Below are positions 1-63,895 of a stretch of 63,895 bases of DNA, one piece after another. The translations under genes and the position numbers were made by a program. This stretch comes from a virus, in the IMG/VR virus record IMGVR_UViG_3300021256_000015, positions 1 to 63,895 of that record. One strand, given 5' to 3'. Under the pieces are notes generated by a model, which was not told the origin of the DNA, did no database searches, and saw only the letters and a list, made by a program, of their open reading frames with translations. The first letter of the stretch is position 1; the number at the start of each line of letters is the position of its first letter.

Positions 1-127
1 AACTATGAGCAGAGATATTTACGGTAAGAGATTAAAGATTGAACGGCAAAGCAGGAATATCAGTTTAAGACAGCTTGCCGAATTGTCAGGAGTCAACAAA
101 ACGACAATCCAGCGCATTGAGAGCGGT
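1..127. repeat. Terminal overlap, copy 1 (identical to the window end)
   Basis: aactatgagcagagatatttacgg...cgcattgagagcggt recurs from 63768 to the end of the window. Confidence 0.9.
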
Positions 128-3356: not shown

Positions 3357-6300
3357 ATGACAGCCGAAGAGAAACAAGAGATTATCAATGCCGTGCTTTC
3401 GTCAATCAGGACGAACAGTAAGACAATCACTCAGCTGACTCCCGTCACCGAACTCGCAGAAACTGACAGCTTCGAGATAAGTGGCGGCAAGCGAGTGACA
3501 TTTGGAGTGTTGAGTTCTCTCATCGCCTCGATGAGTGACACCGACACAGACGCATTGCTTGCCGCCATAGCGTTAAAGAGCCTCAAGTCTGTTTCTATCA
3601 CAACAACAGAGTCCACAGCCACTCTCACAATCAGCAATGCCGAGGACACCATAATATCATGCAGCGTGCCCATCGCTACTGAAAACAAAGCTGGCATTAT
3701 CACCGCAGCACAGAAAATAAAAATAGATAGTGCCTACACAAATTCACAGACAGCTCTCACGCAATCTAACGAGGCTAAGAACGCTGTAGCAAATATCAAC
3801 AACAAACTTGGTCAGCCCAATGGTATTGCCACGCTTGACGGTAATGGTAAGCTTGTGAGCAATCAAGTGCCAAGCAACATTCCAACTTTAACTAACGGAA
3901 AACTCAGTGAAAGTGTTATTCCTAACGGTGTGGCGACCCTTGATGAGAATGGGAAACTTGACAGTAATCAAATCCCTGAGGATGTTGCACGCCTTGATGA
4001 AGACGGGAAATTACAAGAGTCGCTGTTGCCTTCTAAAGCGCATGACACGTTGGAGTTCTATGGCATCCTTGACACAGCAACCATACTACCACAGAGCAAA
4101 GCGAAGTACAGCACAGACGAAGGTGTAAGGATTTACTACATACTATCTGCAAAGCAGTTTGCTTGCAGTGATGACGAGGGAGAGACATTCTACTCTAACT
4201 GGTTAGACCGAGGCCGATATAGTGATGCAAATTTTGCACCCTGGAGTAGCAAGGCTTACATTTGCACATCGACCGATGTACTTTATTACTGGAAGGCAAG
4301 TGCTGCCACTTTGCAACCTATGGGCAAGGACTTTACCAATGAAATAGCTCAGGTGCAGGAAAACATAGATGATGTTCAGAGCGATGTTGATAGAATAGAG
4401 ACTGACATCAGCAATATTAAGGCAAGTATCGCGCCACGGTTGATGTTTGACGGCAATTTGCTAACAGGTAATTCTGACAACAGCCTCACCTTGTCACAAT
4501 TCGTGGCACTAACCAACGCATCTGAAGATTATGCCCATGTCCGTAAAAGAGGTGTGGTAATCAACCTCACAACTCCTGACGGCTTGAAGTCGTATCAATG
4601 GAAAGGCACTACTTGGGCCGATGTGGAAGACTGGAAAGAGTACGGAGGAAGTGCCGCCGTGGGTAATTGCTACAATGTGACCAATGAGATACCCATAAGC
4701 GGATATTACGACCTTGCAAGTGCGATTGTGGCCACATACGGCAAAGGACTTGCAGCCATAGGTATGCAGATAACATTCGCCGTTGGTGCCTCGACGTGGA
4801 AGACATATCAGTACGTTGGTGCAAACGTTGCACAAGCCAACTTCACGAATGAGTCCAACTGGATTGATATGGCAGGTATGAGTGCCGGAAGCGAGCCTGT
4901 AATCAATGTCAATGCTTTATGTGGAGCGCCTGTCAGTGGTGGCTATTACACATTATCGAGTGCGAGAGATGCCATCAGCAATCTAACAGTACGCACTGGC
5001 ATCGACTACAAAAAGAGCGGACTTGTAATCACCTACCTCGTTGGCGAGAATGAGTGGGAAACCAAGCAGTTCAATGGTGTTGTTGAGGATTTTGCCAATG
5101 ATAATATGTGGAGTGTTTTCGGAGAGTCAGGCGAGACGATAGAGTTGAGTCCAACGCCAGCTCCAGCTACAGCGCAAGACCCACCAAAGGCATTCTCTAC
5201 AGAAGGAGCGTATGAGTACCTACCCGATAGTGTCACACCACTAACTGAGGAGGAAGTTGACGCACTCGACAACACCGATACTGAAAACTACAACTACTAC
5301 AAGTTCACTAACGCTGATGGTGATAAGATAGGCTCTGCATTTCCTTTGCCCAAAGGAGGTGGTGGCGGTGGCAGCGGTCAAGTGAAAGTCACAGCAATCG
5401 CTTTTCAGCAATCGCCAATAGCGGCTGCAGCTGGCAGTGACAACTTCGTAATCCATGCCTCAATTCGCTCTATGGTAGGTGAGATAGCATACGACATCCA
5501 CACCATACAAGTCGTTGACAATTCCACCAAACAGACGTTAATGACTTTGACACCTGACCAACCAAGTAGTGCAAGTGCCAGCGACTACTCTTTCACTATT
5601 GACGTGTCGCCATTCTGTAAAGAGGCAGGAACTCGATATATCAAGATTATCGCTACTGACAATTCGGACCAGGCAACCCAATTCAGCCGTACCATCACCG
5701 TCAAGTCAGTTGACGTGACAGTACGCACGATTGATAACCTCGCCGCTAATATGGTAAGCACAACCGACACTGGCAAGGTGTTGACACTTTACCAGTTCCC
5801 AAATAATCAGGGTAGCAATATTGAGGCAAAAGTCGATATTTACGTCAACAATACTTGGAAAAACCTTACCACCGCGACCGTAAGGGATAACTCCTTCCAT
5901 GCCATCACCATCAATGCCACCAATATAGGCAACGATGTTGCATTGGCTCATGGCAGTTATTTATTGCGTATTCAGGGCAGAGATTTGGATAGCAACGTGA
6001 CTGGCAACATCATCTACACATCTTTGCTGGTAGTGAACTCATCAAGCAGCGTGCCGGTGATAGCGTTACGTTATAATGACGTGAGCGGATCTGGCACCAT
6101 CAAGCAGTACGAGACACTGACGATGGAGATTGCCGCCTATGTCAACGACAGTCAAACTGTAGATGTCACTTTAAAAAAGAACACGGCCAATGTAAGCACT
6201 TTCACAGCAGTGCGCAATCGAACCTATGAGATTAGCCAGCAAGTTCAGGAGAGCGGTGACACTATATCGCCAACCACATTGGTATTCCAGGCTGTCAGTG

Positions 6301-10245: not shown

Positions 10246-11028
10246 ATGAACAAAGAACAATCAGTGACGCTATTGCGTCAAAACAAGCGCAAGCAGGTCG
10301 AGGCTCTACAAAGCCTCGGCTTTGCTGGCGTAAGCGTCGCCACACGTGCAAGCTTGTTTGCCGACTACATCAAGTGGAGTGGAGGTTTGCTTGATGTGCG
10401 TGTGGCGATTGTGAGAATTTCGGATGGTGCTCATTTCTATCTCACAATTCAGGAATGGGAGAGCCTGACCAACGAGAACAAGGCCAAGTTTGTGAAGCAG
10501 GGCGTGCGCATCCGTGCATGTCAGGAGGACTTCATATTGTCGGCTATGGCTCTCGGTACGCTGGCATGGGGCGGTACCTATGACGTGGCAACAGTCCCAA
10601 ACTACGGACAGTCAGGCACATCAAGCGTCTATAATTACAGCGCACGAACTGCACTTGAACTGACAAACTACATCAACGATGCCTACGGCACGACGGTCAG
10701 AAACAGCGTGACCGGCTCCCCTGCCGCTAAAGCTGCGTTGGAGTACAAGGCATTCAAGCAAGCTATTGACGGCGTAGATGACGACAGCGACTGGTGCCTT
10801 CCTTTGCCCAAGCACTGCCTTATTCTATATCGTTACATCAACGAGATTAACGACGTGTTGCGCCGTGCGTGGTCAAGTGACAATATCCTCACCACATCGT
10901 CGTTGTGGACTTGCCTCGAATGCAGCAACGCCAATGCGTGGTATTTCATTATGAGTTACGGCGGTGTAGCTGACCAAGCCAAGACTACCCCAACTACCGT
11001 GCGCCCCATAACATTGTTGAACAGTTAA
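10246..11028 (+). CDS. Paralogue of the DGR variable protein, no intact VR (260 aa)
   Basis: Aligns along its length with CDS 11040-11825 (ADYIKWSGGLLDV / ADYMKWAGGLLDV; GVRIRACQEDFILS / GVRVRAERQDFLVS). Start set at the ATG after the stop of the fibre gene. Confidence 0.75.
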   Translation: MNKEQSVTLLRQNKRKQVEALQSLGFAGVSVATRASLFADYIKWSGGLLDVRVAIVRISDGAHFYLTIQEWESLTNENKAKFVKQGVRIRACQEDFILSAMALGTLAWGGTYDVATVPNYGQSGTSSVYNYSARTALELTNYINDAYGTTVRNSVTGSPAAKAALEYKAFKQAIDGVDDDSDWCLPLPKHCLILYRYINEINDVLRRAWSSDNILTTSSLWTCLECSNANAWYFIMSYGGVADQAKTTPTTVRPITLLNS

Positions 11029-11039
11029 ACAAAATCGAT

Positions 11040-11825
11040 ATGAGTACGACAGAAAACAACGCAAAACTGTTTGAGTTGAACTATAACGCTCAACTTGATG
11101 CCCTGCGCGAGATAGGTTTGCTTGGGGCTAACGAGACCTTGCCACTGGGCAAGATTGCCGACTACATGAAATGGGCCGGTGGTTTGCTTGATGTGCAACT
11201 CGCCAAGGTGGACAAGACCACAGGGCGACTCACGCTGTTCCCCACCGACGAGTGGGACGCGCTGAGCAGCAACCAACAGGGCAATTATCTTACACTTGGT
11301 GTTCGCGTGCGCGCCGAGCGTCAGGACTTCCTTGTAAGCAAGGACAACATGAAGACCAGTAGCGGTGCCTACACGATGCTGTGGTCAAGTGAGCGAGTGA
11401 ACGTTCCTGGCCTGACAGACTACGGAGCGGGCAGCACTGGCATCTATGAGGACTTTGACGCAGCTGGCATGACGGATGCCATTGTGGAACTTGCCGAGGC
11501 ACGTGGTGTGGCATACCTGCCCGCACAGCTGAGTCGCGCCTATAAAGCATGTAACGCCACGGACGATGGCGTTGATGACCCTGTTGTGTGGAGTATGGCC
11601 ACGCTTGCGCACCTGCGCATCCTGCACAAGTATAGAACGCAAATCAATGAAGTCATCAACACTTACATAGGCAGCTCTTTCAAACTTGCCGATGAGCGAT
11701 ACTGGGCAGCCAATGAGTATAGCGCAGATTATGCGTACTATATTCATCTTGGCTCCGGCTTTGTCTACTACAACTGCTACAAGAACATCTACAATTTTCG
11801 TGTTCGTGCAGTCTCCGCATTATAA
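11040..11825 (+). CDS. DGR variable (target) protein, DUF1566/C-type-lectin-like C-terminus (261 aa)
   Basis: The C-terminus YWAANEY...GSGFVYYNCYKNIYNFRVRAVSAL contains the VR. Pattern resembles WxLP...YWSS...vRaV of DUF1566. Confidence 0.85.
   Translation: MSTTENNAKLFELNYNAQLDALREIGLLGANETLPLGKIADYMKWAGGLLDVQLAKVDKTTGRLTLFPTDEWDALSSNQQGNYLTLGVRVRAERQDFLVSKDNMKTSSGAYTMLWSSERVNVPGLTDYGAGSTGIYEDFDAAGMTDAIVELAEARGVAYLPAQLSRAYKACNATDDGVDDPVVWSMATLAHLRILHKYRTQINEVINTYIGSSFKLADERYWAANEYSADYAYYIHLGSGFVYYNCYKNIYNFRVRAVSAL
11749..11818 (+). repeat. DGR variable repeat (VR)
   Basis: 70 nt matching TR 12397-12466, with 9 mismatches, all opposite TR adenines. Confidence 0.9.
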
Positions 11826-11865
11826 CCTGATATGCTCTTTTTCCCTTTGACTCTTTTTCTCTTTT

Positions 11866-11888
11866 AAAGCCGCGTTAGCGGCTTTTTT
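11866..11888 (+). terminator. Hairpin aaagccgc-gtta-gcggcttt plus T-run, 48 nt after the VR
   Basis: 8-bp stem, 4-nt loop, then tttt. Ends the late tail operon. Confidence 0.8.
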
Positions 11889-11890
11889 AT

Positions 11891-11921
11891 TTTGGCATGA
11901 AATCAAAATTAACTACCTTTG
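11891..11921 (+). promoter_or_regulatory. Promoter of the avd-TR-RT unit: -33 TTTG (11891-94), -7 TACCTTTG (11914-21)
   Basis: Matches the Bacteroides sigma-A consensus with 19-nt spacing. Sits 21 nt upstream of the avd ATG. Confidence 0.6.
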
Positions 11922-11942
11922 CGCCATTCAAACATCATCACA

Positions 11943-12305
11943 ATGGCACTTGCTGAGGATTTACCAGTATATAGAGCGATATACAAATTACTCAATATGA
12001 TACTTGACGCTCGTGAGCAGTTCCCCAAGGGTTACCGCTACGAGTTTGGGACGCATTTAATGATGCGTTGTGTTGAGTGTTGTGAACTGATACGCTATGC
12101 CAATAGCGACAAAGATAACAGAGCGTCATATTTGCAGGAGTTTCTTGTGAAGTTTGACGGATTGAGGTTACTACTTAGGGTATGTCAAGACAGAAAGTTA
12201 ATAACAATAAAGCAAGGTGCCGACATGGTTTTGCTTGTTCAGGAAATAGAACGGCAAGCTACTGGATGGCGCAATGCCTCAACTTTCCGCAAGCCAGTGC
12301 CATGA
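11943..12305 (+). CDS. avd: Avd-like accessory variability determinant (four-helix-bundle protein, 120 aa)
   Basis: FPKGYRYEFGTHLMMRCVECCELIRYAN...ASYLQEFLVKFDGLRLLL fits the 23S-IVS/four-helix-bundle family. Lies between VR and TR. Confidence 0.75.
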   Translation: MALAEDLPVYRAIYKLLNMILDAREQFPKGYRYEFGTHLMMRCVECCELIRYANSDKDNRASYLQEFLVKFDGLRLLLRVCQDRKLITIKQGADMVLLVQEIERQATGWRNASTFRKPVP

Positions 12306-12396
12306 GTGTTACGGTGCTCATGGGAGAGCAATTACTTCAGGTTATATTGGGTGTCCCCCTCTCTTGTAAGAGGTAAGATTTAAGTGGGCACATTAG

Positions 12397-12466
12397 TTGG
12401 CTCCGGCTATGTCAACAACAACAACAACAAGAACAACAACAATTATCGTGTTCGTGCAGTCTCCGC
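12397..12466 (+). repeat. DGR template repeat (TR)
   Basis: AAC-rich 70-mer (23 adenines) ending 1 nt before the RT start codon. Confidence 0.9.
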
Positions 12467-12467
12467 T

Positions 12468-13724
12468 ATGGAACCAGTAATCTACGACATACCCTTTTCC
12501 TCAATCGTTGAAGCCTACCGTGATTGTCTAAAAAATAAGCGAGGTACTAATTCCTACACCAAATTCACAATGTCCTATGAGGGGCAATTGGTATGGTTGT
12601 GGGAGCGCATAAAGACACGAACTTATAAGCCTGGCTATTCTTATACATTCATTGTGGACTATCCCGTGACGAGGGAGATTTTTGCCGCCTCGTTCATCGA
12701 CCGAGTGGTGCATCACTATATCGCCCTGCGTATAGAGCCAATACTTGATGCTCTGTTTGTTGAGCAGGGCAATGTGAGCAAGAACTGCCGTAAGGGAGAG
12801 GGCAATATGAAGATGGTGTATGAGGTTGCACAGATACTCCGTGAGGTAAGCGAGGATTACACTACTGATGCCTACATCTTCAAAGGTGACGTTGCTAATT
12901 TCTTTATGAGCATAGATAAGTCAATCCTTTGGGAAATGATTGACGATTTTGTTAGAGAGGAATATAAAGGAGATGACCTTGATTGCCTGTTGTACCTTTT
13001 AAATGTGGTCATTTTCCATTGCCCTCAAGATAGGTGCATCAGGAAATCGCCCATAAAGAAATGGAAGCCATTGCCAAAGCGTAAGAGTCTTTTTTATACA
13101 GAACGAAACAGAGGCATGGCAATCGGCAATTTGCCGAGCCAGCTACTCGCCAACTTCTTTGCATCGGCTTTTGACCAGTGGCTAAAGTATAACGGAGTTG
13201 ATTATTACCGTCGCTTTTGTGATGACTTTGTTATTGTCACAAAAGATAAAGATATGCTATTACAACTAATACCACAGATGGAGAAATACCTTGATGAGCA
13301 GTTGAAAATGTCGTTACATCCCGATAAACGCTATATCCAGCACTACACAAAAGGCGTGAAGATGGTAGGTACTGTAATCAAGCCAGGACGTATTTATGTC
13401 GCCAATCGTACAATAGGCAAATTCTATGAAAAGATTAGATACTATAACACTCTTGCCGATGAGGGTTTGCAGGAACAATACGTAGAGAAGTTCGTGCAGT
13501 CCATAAACAGCTACTATGGCATAATGAAGCATTACAACACATATAACATTCGTAAACGCATAGGCAATGACATGATATTGCCGAAGTGGGCTGGTTATCT
13601 ATATTTCTGCAAAGGGTGGAGTAAAGCGAGTGTAGTAAGGAAGTACAAGCCAATATATATGACACGAAAATCCTACCAGCGTGGCAAGGTGACATTTGCC
13701 CCCGAATTAGGCAAACGAAAATAG
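12468..13724 (+). CDS. DGR reverse transcriptase (418 aa)
   Basis: IGNLPSQ (the DGR-type IGxxxSQ motif), YRRFCDDFVIV (YxDD box) and FKGDVANFFMSID. The start is moved to ATG 12468 because 12384-12467 is the TR. Confidence 0.9.
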   Translation: MEPVIYDIPFSSIVEAYRDCLKNKRGTNSYTKFTMSYEGQLVWLWERIKTRTYKPGYSYTFIVDYPVTREIFAASFIDRVVHHYIALRIEPILDALFVEQGNVSKNCRKGEGNMKMVYEVAQILREVSEDYTTDAYIFKGDVANFFMSIDKSILWEMIDDFVREEYKGDDLDCLLYLLNVVIFHCPQDRCIRKSPIKKWKPLPKRKSLFYTERNRGMAIGNLPSQLLANFFASAFDQWLKYNGVDYYRRFCDDFVIVTKDKDMLLQLIPQMEKYLDEQLKMSLHPDKRYIQHYTKGVKMVGTVIKPGRIYVANRTIGKFYEKIRYYNTLADEGLQEQYVEKFVQSINSYYGIMKHYNTYNIRKRIGNDMILPKWAGYLYFCKGWSKASVVRKYKPIYMTRKSYQRGKVTFAPELGKRK

Positions 13725-15996: not shown

Positions 15997-16031
15997 AGCA
16001 GTTGCGCCCTCGTGATGAAGGTGCAACTGCT
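15997..16031. terminator. Bidirectional hairpin agcagttgc-N17-gcaactgct
   Basis: 9-bp stem between the convergent lysis operon (+) and RHH gene (-). T-rich on the + side. Confidence 0.6.
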
Positions 16032-16206
16032 ATTTATTCAAAGCAGCCTTGCGTATGGCAGCACAAATAAACTCGCTCTTATTTGTTGTCAATGAGTCTA
16101 AAATTTCAACTACGTCAGGTGTTGCAGAAAACATATAACGCTTGGCACAGCCTTTTTTTCGACCTGCACCCTCTCTTTTTCCTCCCCAAGTTTTTTTGTT
16201 TTCCAT
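16030..16206 (-). CDS. Ribbon-helix-helix-like small DNA-binding protein (58 aa; excisionase or regulator candidate)
   Basis: Own translation: MENKKTWGGKREGAGRKKGCAKRYMFSATPDVVEILDSLTTNKSEFICAAIRKAALNK. Below the 60-aa ORF-track cutoff. Confidence 0.55.
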   Translation of the reverse strand: MENKKTWGGKREGAGRKKGCAKRYMFSATPDVVEILDSLTTNKSEFICAAIRKAALNK

Positions 16207-16611
16207 ATTTGTTGTATTTTTGCATCACCAACCAAAAACCAATGGGGTGGTGTTTGTTCCACCCCTTGGATTTTTAGAGGGCTATCTCTATTTTCACCCT
16301 CAGTTTCCAAATCTTAATGATGATTGTTAGGCTCATAAGATTTTGGTTTTTGGTTGTTTTCCTACTCTTTTCAAGGTTTTCGGAATCCCCTTTGTAAACC
16401 CTCATCGTTTACATTACAAAGTTACTGCTTTATCTTGAATTATGCAAGAAAAAATCAAGTTTTTTTTAAAAAAAAGTGCTTTTTTTTGCTCAATTCAGTA
16501 TGAACTATTGTGCGGTATGGGAGTAATAAGAGCGAGCGTCTTGTGATGATGAATTGTGATGATGAGAGACGCTCAAGTGGGCGCGTCTGTGAAGATACGC
16601 CCATTATGGTA
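16207..16611. other. attP-candidate / regulatory non-coding region
   Basis: T8A8 palindrome 16460-16475, T8 at 16480-87, tandem TTGTGATGATGA x2 (16541-65) inside an inverted repeat, and an 8-bp IR ctttgtaa/ttacaaag (16390-16421). Adjacent to int. Confidence 0.4.
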
Positions 16612-16737: not shown

Positions 16738-17910
16738 TCACTTTAAATTGTCAAGTACCAGCCTCACTGCATCCGTCGCTTGTTGTGGAGTGACTGATAT
16801 GTAGCTGTAGAGTGCGGTGCTCACTTTGTCCACTCTATGCCCCAGGATATAGTCCACAACGCTCTCACTAACTCCAAGTTGGAATGCGTGTTGAGCGAAT
16901 GACTTGCGGGCTGAATAGAAAATCAGATGTTTAATGCCTGCGGCCTCGGCAAGCTGTTTCATGTGATTGACGAAAACGTAATGCAGCCTATCTTTATTGT
17001 TGTACTTGCCAAATAAGAGGCGGCCATCTCTGCCTTTGTATTTGGCAATTAATGGTTTTGCCTCGTCAGGGATTGCGAACTCCACGAACTTGTTAAGTTT
17101 CGGTTTGTTCTTTGTCTTTGTCCTAACATAGTGGATGCGCTTGCAGTCAGTGAAGTCCACCGAGAGCAAGTCAATCGCATTGATGCCACCCAGGTAGTAA
17201 CTCAACATAAATGCGTCACGGCATATTTGCACACTACGCTTATCGCATTTGGCGTCACGGATCTGTCTTATCTCATCCACCGAGAGCCATGATTGCCTTA
17301 CCTCTTGGGCTGGTAGTTCAAAGCCAACGAAAGGGTCATATTGTGGCACTGCATACCTACACCGCTCTGCGAATTTGAGCAACACCATAATGAACACGAG
17401 TCGGTCACGTCGTGTATTAGGTGTGTAGTTGCGTTCCACCATAAACTTGTTAAAACCTACGAGAGTGAGGTGTGTTATGCGCTCAATTAGCATATTTTCG
17501 TCAATGAACGCTGTGATGCAGCGGTAGATTGTCCTATAGTTAATGCGAGTGCCGTTGGCTATGTTTGCCGTCTCAATGTACTTCTCATAGACTTCCTTGA
17601 ATGTCTTGTGGCGGTTGTATTCAGAGTGGGTGATTGCATAGACCAGTTCCGGGCACGTAAGACCGTCTATGTAATCCAGCTCATCGATTGCGTCCCGATA
17701 GTGTTGCACCATCTTCCGTAGTTTGGTATTGAGAAAGGCGGCGTCACCACGGTTAACGACAATGCCGTTTTTGAACTCGCGTACATTATCTATAATAATA
17801 GATGTTGGAATGTAGCGAGTTGTGCCATTGTGGGCGATGGAGATACGCACTTTGTGTTTACCCCCTTTAAGTACCTTAGTAGGTACAATGACAGTTCTAA
17901 TAGTTGCCAT
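16738..17910 (-). CDS. int: Tyrosine site-specific integrase (390 aa)
   Basis: Bacteroidetes-type N-terminus (KGGKHKVRISIAHNGTTRYIPT arm-binding-like). The C-terminal catalytic region includes SARKSFAQHA...ILGHRV...LYSY. Confidence 0.9.
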   Translation of the reverse strand: MATIRTVIVPTKVLKGGKHKVRISIAHNGTTRYIPTSIIIDNVREFKNGIVVNRGDAAFLNTKLRKMVQHYRDAIDELDYIDGLTCPELVYAITHSEYNRHKTFKEVYEKYIETANIANGTRINYRTIYRCITAFIDENMLIERITHLTLVGFNKFMVERNYTPNTRRDRLVFIMVLLKFAERCRYAVPQYDPFVGFELPAQEVRQSWLSVDEIRQIRDAKCDKRSVQICRDAFMLSYYLGGINAIDLLSVDFTDCKRIHYVRTKTKNKPKLNKFVEFAIPDEAKPLIAKYKGRDGRLLFGKYNNKDRLHYVFVNHMKQLAEAAGIKHLIFYSARKSFAQHAFQLGVSESVVDYILGHRVDKVSTALYSYISVTPQQATDAVRLVLDNLK

Positions 17911-63767: not shown

Positions 63768-63895
63768 AAACTATGAGCAGAGATATTTACGGTAAGAGAT
63801 TAAAGATTGAACGGCAAAGCAGGAATATCAGTTTAAGACAGCTTGCCGAATTGTCAGGAGTCAACAAAACGACAATCCAGCGCATTGAGAGCGGT
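63768..63895. repeat. Terminal overlap, copy 2 (repeats positions 1-~127, including the 5' part of the HTH gene)
   Basis: Base-for-base identical by eye to the window start. Confidence 0.9.

Follow-up and report, generated by a model that had tools for sequence, protein, structure and literature searches.

The stretch of DNA analysed here, referred to as the window, is the 63,895-nt viral record IMGVR_UViG_3300021256_000015 of IMG/VR. It carries a diversity-generating retroelement (DGR) made of a target gene that ends in a variable repeat (VR), an avd (accessory variability determinant) gene, a template repeat (TR) and a reverse transcriptase (RT) gene, preceded by a paralog of the target gene (Table 1). 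A sequence-only reading of the window had proposed a complete element of this target-VR/avd/TR/RT layout, and all its parts were found: an RT, an Avd, a TR/VR pair with adenine-specific differences and a VR at the 3' end of the target gene. We are highly confident that the segment 11040-13724, together with the partner gene at 10246-11028, is a DGR of a temperate tailed phage that probably infects Bacteroidota and has a circular genome of 63,768 bp, and that it diversifies a DUF1566/lectin-like protein, most likely a receptor- or ligand-binding tip. The element is complete and apparently active.

The repeat pair and its natural variants

Compared without gaps at a fixed offset of 648 nt, VR and TR match at 61 of 70 positions. 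The nine mismatches (VR positions 11761, 11766, 11769, 11775, 11776, 11778, 11788, 11790 and 11797) all fall on a TR adenine, the VR base being T in eight cases and G in one, and every non-A position is identical. These features, and the AAC-rich codon string that TR gives in the VR frame, TAT GTC (AAC)5 AAG (AAC)3 AAT TAT, had been described in the sequence-only reading and were fully reproduced. TR contains 23 A in 70 nt, 20 of them in AAC, AAG or AAT codons, and the probability that all nine mismatches land on TR adenines by chance is 1.3e-5 (hypergeometric). All nine differences affect codon position 1 or 2 of AAC or TAT codons, the positions occupied by 22 of the 23 TR adenines (AAC, AAT, AAG and TAT codons). 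When the pattern was searched with any nucleotide allowed at the TR adenines, only two sites were retrieved in the 63.9-kb window, even with three mismatches, and none in 100 shuffles. As had been read from the DNA, the coding sequence 11040-11825 carries the VR at its 3' end: this 261-aa open reading frame (ORF) ends 7 nt past the VR, and the diversified codons correspond to residues 241-253 of the target.

Public assemblies provided natural variants of this pair. The set comprised 12 encoding contigs near-identical to the phage of the window, 11 of which reach the TR. TR was identical at 70 of 70 positions in all 11, and 11 distinct VRs were present among the 13 sequences compared (the window and the 12 contigs). 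In the eight VRs of 70 nt, 69 of the 184 adenine-templated cells of the alignment were changed and none of the other 376 (Fisher P 1.4e-38), with 30 changes to G, 23 to T and 16 to C. Substitutions in the public assemblies are thus confined to the TR-adenine sites, and variation elsewhere in the VR, which had been named as the observation that would speak against a DGR, was absent. Outside the VR the target gene differs by only 0.3-5% among these genomes; their RT genes differ from that of the window by 51-58 nt (contigs scored). These natural variants indicate, indirectly, unidirectional mutagenic retrohoming, with a constant TR and a rewritten VR. A similar picture was seen at the protein level. 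The homologs of the target form 47 clusters, which align as a conserved scaffold with a hypervariable stretch, HLGSGxVxxxxxKxxxxxRVRAVSAL. The closest cluster (P0001) groups near-identical proteins from different gut metagenomes, one of them identical to that of the window, and 15 of its 21 variable columns lie in or beside residues 241-253.

Some adenines of the template are never replaced. In the eight 70-nt VRs these are two of the AAG (Lys) codon, two of the AAT codon and a silent one in the 3' stretch; in three longer VRs the AAT adenines do change, and the AAG codon and the silent 3' adenine are again unchanged. None of the 11 VRs alters the Lys248 codon (window 11781-11783; TR 12429-12431), and it hardly varies across the family. 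This points to selection: no codon free of adenine encodes Lys, so that many homing products must be eliminated by selection at this residue. For the silent 3' adenine, the lack of change suggests a boundary effect of the kind described in other DGRs.

The longer VRs (L010 3710-3782, L018 2496-2571 and L019 2241-2313) exceed their own unchanged 70-nt TR by 3 or 6 nt, and differ from it only by extra in-frame NNC codons inside the (AAC)n tracts and by changes at A sites. The protein P0054 belongs with these length variants. Similar in-frame differences in length between TR and VR occur in L023, L025, L028 and Bacteroides phage BS-TP1, and the TRs of L014 and L015 differ by 9 nt. We rejected the idea that such variants are a new phenomenon, since TR/VR indels beside AAC have already been described and RT slippage proposed (Wu et al. 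2018, PMC5758913); the length differences seen here are consistent with slippage on AAC repeats. Four of 20 related IMG/VR contigs (L024, L026, L029 and L031) end inside the VR, at target residues 240-245, and the Logan contig L008 ends 34 nt before the TR. Such ends are expected where the repeat is heterogeneous within a sample.

The module formed by paralog, target, avd, TR and RT is conserved in IMG/VR and GenBank relatives whose target is 32-77% identical, and adenine-specific TR/VR pairs were present in 13 of the 14 distinct more distant loci analysed. In L035 the best downstream match to the VR, at 4492-4601, is not A-rich and shows 12 non-adenine differences; it looks like a second VR-like copy, not a TR. 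We also considered whether the 5' part of a longer ancestral VR had become 'frozen' in the clade of the window. This was unsupported, the variation there among relatives not being confined to formerly adenine-templated positions.

Table 1. Coordinates of the retroelement and of associated features in the window
Feature	Position	Strand	Description
Non-diversified target paralog	10246..11028	+	260 aa; without VR; adjoins the target upstream
DGR target (variable protein) gene	11040..11825	+	261-aa ORF; N-terminal helical/beta part, predicted C-terminal DUF1566/Lcl_C-type lectin-like domain with the VR
Variable repeat (VR)	11749..11818	+	70 nt; encodes residues ~237-260
IMH-like 3' boundary	11798..11831	+	21 nt identical in VR and TR, then ~13 nt of imperfect match
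CT-rich 8-nt repeat array	11835..11866	+	Four CYCTTTNN units at 11835, 11843, 11851 and 11859; between VR and hairpin, just past the stop codon
GC-rich inverted repeat and T-run	11866..11895	+	8-bp stem, 4-nt loop GTTA; terminator scan; DNA fold z = -2.75
Candidate Bacteroidota-type promoter for avd-TR-RT	11891..11921	+	TTTG 11891-11894, 19-nt spacer, TACCTTTG 11914-11921
avd	11943..12305	+	120 aa, pI 9.0 (basic), four-helix bundle; between VR and TR
Template repeat (TR)	12397..12466	+	70 nt; ends 1 nt before the RT start codon
DGR reverse transcriptase	12468..13724	+	418 aa; IGNLPSQ 13122-13142, FCDD 13215-13226
Tyrosine integrase	16738-17910	-	Bacteroidota-type arm-binding and SAM-like domains

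Proteins of the retroelement

The RT most plausibly starts at ATG 12468, which places it directly after the TR, and it carries the IGNLPSQ and FCDD motifs noticed beforehand. A longer, GTG-started ORF from 12384 was rejected as reading through the TR. The protein matches Pfam RVT_1 above its cut-off and PHROG 1423 at 4e-72. In a phmmer search its closest solved relative was 8ub7_A, the Brt protein of Bordetella phage BPP-1 (E 9e-17, 64.5 bits), with IGNLPSQ aligned to IGSLTSQ and FCDD to YMDD; CRISPR-associated, retron-like and group II RTs followed at 1e-7 to 3e-3, so that the clustering with group II or retron RTs that would have spoken against a DGR was not seen. Members of the DGR clade have [ILV]GxxxSQ, where group II and retron enzymes have QGxxxSP, together with [YF]xDD, and both are present here. 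Among GenBank phages, tblastn gave the RTs of an uncultured faecal phage (49%), of the cultured, DGR-bearing Bacteroides phages F2, F4 and Bacuni_F1 (41-43%) and BS-TP1 (37%) as the closest, and Bordetella phages were also among the matches.

Two independent assemblies of one lineage (L002 and L003) have T7 for T6 at ~13084-13090. The extra T breaks the RT into two ORFs, of 269 and 148 aa, yet the VR of these assemblies remains different from the TR at 14 adenine sites. The frameshift may be genuine, as an inactivating or a switching variant, or may result from a homopolymer error. A frameshifted RT has been reported for the DGR of Quimbyvirus (PMC8008677). The RT allele of the window differs by ~4% (51-58 nt) from those of the other near-identical contigs, the adjacent avd-TR segment by 1-8 nt and the TR itself by 0, which suggests a recombinational mosaic within the cassette.

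The 120-aa gene between the repeats, proposed as an Avd-like four-helix protein, was confirmed as such by profile and fold. It scores 53.5 bits with Pfam bAvd (cut-off 40, E 3.9e-14) and 1.8e-30 with PHROG 3206 ('Avd protein of DGR'). Folded alone, its AlphaFold2 (AF2) model consists of four long helices (predicted local distance difference test, pLDDT, 88) and superposes on the crystal structure of BPP-1 Avd (4dwl) and on chains B-E of the DGR ribonucleoprotein 8ub7 with template modelling (TM) scores of 0.72-0.86. A phmmer search of Avd against the PDB sequences gave nothing.

For the target, phmmer against the PDB sequences likewise gave nothing, and a fold comparison was needed. The AF2 model (pLDDT 92) has as best PDB matches 4eps, a fimbrial tip protein of Bacteroides ovatus, and 8q4e, the C-terminal domain of Legionella Lcl, which has the DUF1566 fold. 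The BFVD matches are C-termini of phage tail-fibre and DUF1566 proteins (E 3e-10, TM ~0.6). PF07603 is annotated on 16 of the homolog clusters of the target, and a profile search retrieved 419 clusters at 50% identity with E <1e-10, many of them longer proteins with the module at their C-terminus. The lectin-type fold of a variable protein is thus indicated by a high-confidence prediction, by fold matches and by PF07603 homologs. The assignment of the target to a DUF1566/C-type-lectin-like domain, made in the sequence-only reading, is partly supported: the homologs and the predicted structure favour it, and the Pfam score of the protein itself is sub-threshold. By analogy, judging from the fold, the gene position and the precedent of the Bacuni phages described below, the target is most likely a receptor- or ligand-binding tip protein of the virion.

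It had also been stated that the target lies directly behind a 2290-aa 'fibre' gene. This did not hold, for the 260-aa paralog intervenes. Paralog and target share 29% identity (BLASTP E 3e-28), and no TR-like sequence was found in the paralog when the window was scanned with the N-at-adenine pattern. In each of the 11 related loci tested, an ortholog (37-72% identity) immediately precedes the target, and across relatives this upstream gene forms an orthologous lineage of its own. The constant and the variable paralog may act as a pair, or as a heteromeric tail tip.

Flanking DNA and phage genome

At the 3' boundary, which resembles the initiation of mutagenic homing (IMH) site of other DGRs, the 21 identical nt consist of CGTGTTCGTGCAGTCTCCGC plus the preceding T, and the following ~13 nt distinguish VR (ATTATAACCTGAT) from TR (TATGGAACCAGTA); the repeat (D2) extends to 79 nt at 84% identity. 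The silent TR adenine mentioned above (VR 11810) is the only one in this stretch and is unchanged in 11 of 11 VRs. The putative IMH is named by analogy (PMC5758913), and the stretch contains no G/C-only 14-mer. A hairpin (11866-11885) follows the VR only and not the TR. Together with the T-run, this inverted repeat looks like the intrinsic terminator of the target operon, and it may correspond to the inverted repeat located downstream of the IMH in other DGRs. A hairpin is found at the equivalent position in relatives. The clade of the window has the form GCCGC-GTTA-GCGGC, and the distant relatives L022, L023, L025, L027, L030, L032, L034 and L038 have a different one, a GAA-loop mini-hairpin ~80-100 nt past the VR with compensatory stems (CCGC-GAA-GCGG, CCGGC-GAA-GCCGG, CTCGC-GAA-GCGAG and CCCGC-GAA-GCGGG). 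A larger conserved inverted repeat lies upstream of the mini-hairpin, around CCCCGACGAWAGGAGGGG.

The CT-octamer array is unique in the window and occurs once, at the same place, in 21 fetched loci. With 3-4 units, it was noted at this position in L001-L010, L017-L019, L022, L025, L028, L032, L034-L037 and L039. In alignment A3, which compares the otherwise poorly conserved intergenic regions of 12 diverged relatives, three CTT triplets spaced by 8 nt do not vary, and the array is kept in relatives with proteins only 32-43% identical. Weaker CT-rich tracts, with a hairpin before or after them, lie 3' of the VR in Bacuni_F1, BS-TP1 and a distant metagenome-assembled genome. One idea, which we regard as rather doubtful, is that the array is a new cis element of this DGR lineage that marks VR and not TR as the recipient of the cDNA, and so extends or replaces the classical IMH; the heteromeric tip of constant and variable paralogs is a second, equally tentative possibility. 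Alternatively, the array could be a pyrimidine-rich (rut-like) termination signal.

The boxes of the candidate promoter, TTTG and TACCTTTG, resemble the -33 and -7 promoter elements of Bacteroides. A TAnnTTTG-like box lies upstream of avd in most of 12 aligned relatives and is exact in the window, L020, L030, L036, L011 and others. The predicted RNA fold of the region from the avd 3' end across TR to the RT 5' end (12296-12600) is no more stable than that of shuffled sequences (z +1.28) and so gives no sign of a structured DGR RNA.

The first 127 nt of the window (1-127) are identical to the last (63769-63895), which indicates a circular assembly and a genome of 63,768 bp. Its phage genes include portal, tape measure, holin, two endolysins and an integrase (PHROG and domain searches). 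The tape-measure gene is followed by several structural genes, the gene for the 2290-aa protein, the 260-aa paralog and the target; on the 3' side of the DGR come holin, M15 peptidase, amidase and tyrosine integrase. A 144.8-kb metagenome contig (L017) is collinear with the window up to 18077, just past the integrase, and beyond this point it contains bacterial genes, among them an IS110 transposase and a murI-like racemase. We interpret this as a prophage junction, showing that the phage integrates, with a predicted attP near 17.9-18.1 kb of the window. The phage is therefore temperate, and it is tailed and comes from the gut; its host is probably a member of the Bacteroidota, in view of the integrase domain types, the promoter-like boxes, the nearest cultured relatives of the RT and the gut or faecal source given in a record name and one GenBank source field. 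Among GTDB species-representative genomes there was no close prophage, only RTs at 36-38% identity, and neither the cassette nor 24 kb of the structural region had a megablast match among GenBank phages. In IMG/VR the exact VR/TR pattern with N at the adenines had 0 matches, and no near-identical copy of the phage was found by the VR/TR pattern or by a close RT match.

Beside the integrase, the Rfam RNA motif DUF805b was detected in the intergenic DNA at 16359-16393 on the minus strand (50.2 bits, gathering score 35.6). It lies ~150 nt upstream of a same-strand 58-aa ORF (16030-16206) that starts MENKKTWGGKREGAGRKKG and is not a DUF805 protein.

Interpretation and comparison with known DGRs

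From these data a working model can be proposed. The avd gene, TR and RT would be transcribed as a unit from the promoter just past the terminator of the target gene. By homology with the bRT-Avd complex of BPP-1, an RT-Avd complex would then reverse-transcribe the TR RNA and place random nucleotides opposite the 23 template adenines. The cDNA would replace the VR at the 3' end of the target; the IMH-like invariant stretch and the DNA beyond it presumably determine how far the replacement reaches in the 3' direction. The TR would stay unchanged, as is shown in the natural variants. The outcome would be up to ~8e12 variants of 12 residues (aa 241-253) on the DUF1566/C-type-lectin-like domain. 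The target gene closes the tail module, with the gene for a very large tail-associated protein on one side and the lysis genes on the other; fold, position and the Bacuni precedent suggest that its diversification alters the adsorption range of the phage.

Several observations weigh against this interpretation. The Avd protein reaches 51 bits with the NCBIfam equivalog DivGenRetAVD, under the cut-off of 80. The target scores 19.2 bits with Pfam Lcl_C (cut-off 34.9, E 1.5e-3), and the fold comparison with the PDB gave modest matches (E 4e-3 to 6e-3, TM 0.3-0.6). The 2290-aa protein is assigned only to a PHROG without known function, apart from a weak 'minor tail' match at its N-terminus; the label 'fibre' is drawn from gene position and fold. 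The variation in the VR was seen between samples, and the additional T in the RT of L002 and L003 means that the element is not intact everywhere. Finally, the virion location and the receptor-binding role of the target are deduced by analogy: the proposal of a diversified receptor-binding protein, already made in the sequence-only reading, agrees with the fold and the gene position, and both the role and the 'fibre' label keep the status of inferences.

We can set aside an origin of the RT in another retroelement or defence system (group II intron, retron, or DRT/Abi, that is, defence-associated or abortive-infection RTs), with the 70-nt repeat as an ordinary duplication of the target 3' end. 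Generic models do match the palm and fingers of the enzyme: NCBIfam group_II_RT_mat gives 69.5 bits (palm region only), the NCBIfam retron RT model 39 bits, and in PADLOC generic sub-threshold RT/DRT models reach up to 88 bits and retron RT models <=43 bits. However, the two NCBIfam scores are far under their cut-offs of 300 and 235 bits, and in a like-for-like phmmer search the retron-like and group II RTs obtain only 20-24 bits (1e-4 to 3e-3), against the score of BPP-1 Brt given above. Neither the maturase domain in a structured intron RNA that defines a group II intron nor the combination of retron RT, msr/msd RNA and effector that defines a retron was found. At gathering thresholds Rfam reports only DUF805b in the window, with no group II intron RNA and no msr/msd-type family, as far as Rfam holds such families. 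An avd gene is adjacent, and an adenine-only pattern across 11 VRs is impossible from ordinary duplication, so that this explanation is effectively refuted. It is also very improbable that the DGR is a relic here, with old VR differences and retrohoming lost. The related lineage with the frameshifted RT keeps a diversified VR, which means that diversified VRs outlive RT function. Against this, RT, Avd and TR are all intact in the window, 11 distinct VRs occur among genomes whose target hardly differs outside the VR, and decay after inactivation would not give a perfectly conserved TR together with unchanged non-A cells in every VR.

A less remote alternative, unlikely in our view, accepts the DGR as real and questions the function of its product. 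The variable protein would not bind the host receptor; it might serve as an accessory adhesin that attaches, for example, to mucus, glycans or surfaces other than the host, or it might act in the lysogen, like the pilus-tip-like targets of Bacteroides. The best PDB fold match is indeed a fimbrial tip protein, targets of this kind fall in the 'pilin-like' group, which is 70% prophage-encoded in a survey of Bacteroides DGRs (bioRxiv 10.1101/2024.11.15.621889), and the adjacent constant paralog could be the actual receptor-binding protein. By contrast, the gene is the last of the tail module and directly precedes the lysis cassette, the BFVD matches are C-termini of phage tail-fibre proteins, and no signal peptide or lipobox was seen by eye in the N-terminus of the target (no predictor was run). 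Moreover, VR differences track host range in the Bacuni phages (PMC8143477). We therefore favour a receptor- or ligand-binding tip as the diversified protein.

The present work adds a well-documented, apparently active DGR in an uncultured temperate gut phage with a complete circular genome, a phage absent from the GenBank phage collection. The public assemblies constitute a natural experiment in which one invariant template can be set against 11 variable regions, and the dataset can be used to ask which template adenines are tolerated, how slippage on AAC repeats adds codons and which of the flanking sequences mark the target. The layout is already well known from Bacteroides and gut phages, and descriptions of DGRs in gut Bacteroides phages and prophages are abundant (PMC6199706, PMC8008677, bioRxiv 10.1101/2024.11.15.621889). 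Existing knowledge of DGRs is unchanged, and the element is a good model candidate, not a new type of system.

The nearest characterised system is that of the Bacteroides uniformis phages Bacuni_F1, F2 and F4 (Hedzet et al. 2021, PMC8143477). Its genes come in the same order, with a small DUF1566/'fimbrial-tip-like' target, avd, a TR that abuts or overlaps the RT start, RT, lysis genes and an integrase/recombinase, and the RTs are 41-43% identical. Both systems have the VR at the extreme 3' end, adenine-specific changes and a hairpin 3' of the VR. However, the backbone here measures 63.8 kb and not 40 kb and has no nucleotide similarity to the Bacuni phages, and the targets share only 28% identity over the C-terminal 149 aa. 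The VR described here is single and 70 nt long, whereas Bacuni has two VRs, and its VR is described as coding for the last 35 aa (PMC8143477). The conserved upstream paralog had no counterpart detected in Bacuni_F1 ORF 48. Among the Bacuni phages, host ranges differ between phages that are nearly identical outside the VR (PMC8143477).

With the experimental prototype of Bordetella phage BPP-1 (mtd-avd-TR-brt), the element shares the order target-avd-TR-RT, the IGxLxSQ and [YF]xDD motifs of the RT, the four-helix fold of Avd and the AAC-rich TR codons, as well as a VR at the C-terminus of a tail protein with a lectin fold (here a predicted one) and a GC-rich inverted repeat downstream of the VR. 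The similarity to Brt amounts to only about 64 bits. In BPP-1, Mtd has 381 aa, the TR has 134 nt and a spacer separates TR and RT. In the window, the target has 261 aa with a predicted DUF1566/Lcl_C-type domain, the TR has 70 nt and there is no TR-RT spacer, so that an Sp-like priming region, if there is one, would fall within the coding sequence of the RT. Also in contrast to BPP-1, no G/C-only 14-mer opens the IMH-like stretch, and the CT-rich octamer array lies between VR and hairpin.

A relation to the pilin-like, 4EPS-type proteins of 'domain group 1' in Bacteroides DGRs (Macadangdang et al., bioRxiv 10.1101/2024.11.15.621889) is suggested by the best PDB fold match of the target, 4eps. 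The DGRs of this group are also prophage-borne, encode an Avd-like protein and occur in gut metagenomes. The target is far smaller than the pilus-tip proteins, and the match covers only the C-terminal part of those proteins (TM 0.25 when normalised to the target). Hankyphage (Benler et al. 2018, PMC6199706) and Quimbyvirus (Benler et al. 2021, PMC8008677) are, in the same way, temperate Bacteroides gut phages with lectin-fold targets downstream of the tail genes. The phage of the window has no detectable nucleotide similarity to any GenBank phage record. The type of evidence is the same, namely adenine-specific variation among near-identical genomes, and the element described here has one VR and an RT encoded by a single ORF, whereas in Quimbyvirus there are two targets and the RT is divided among three frames.

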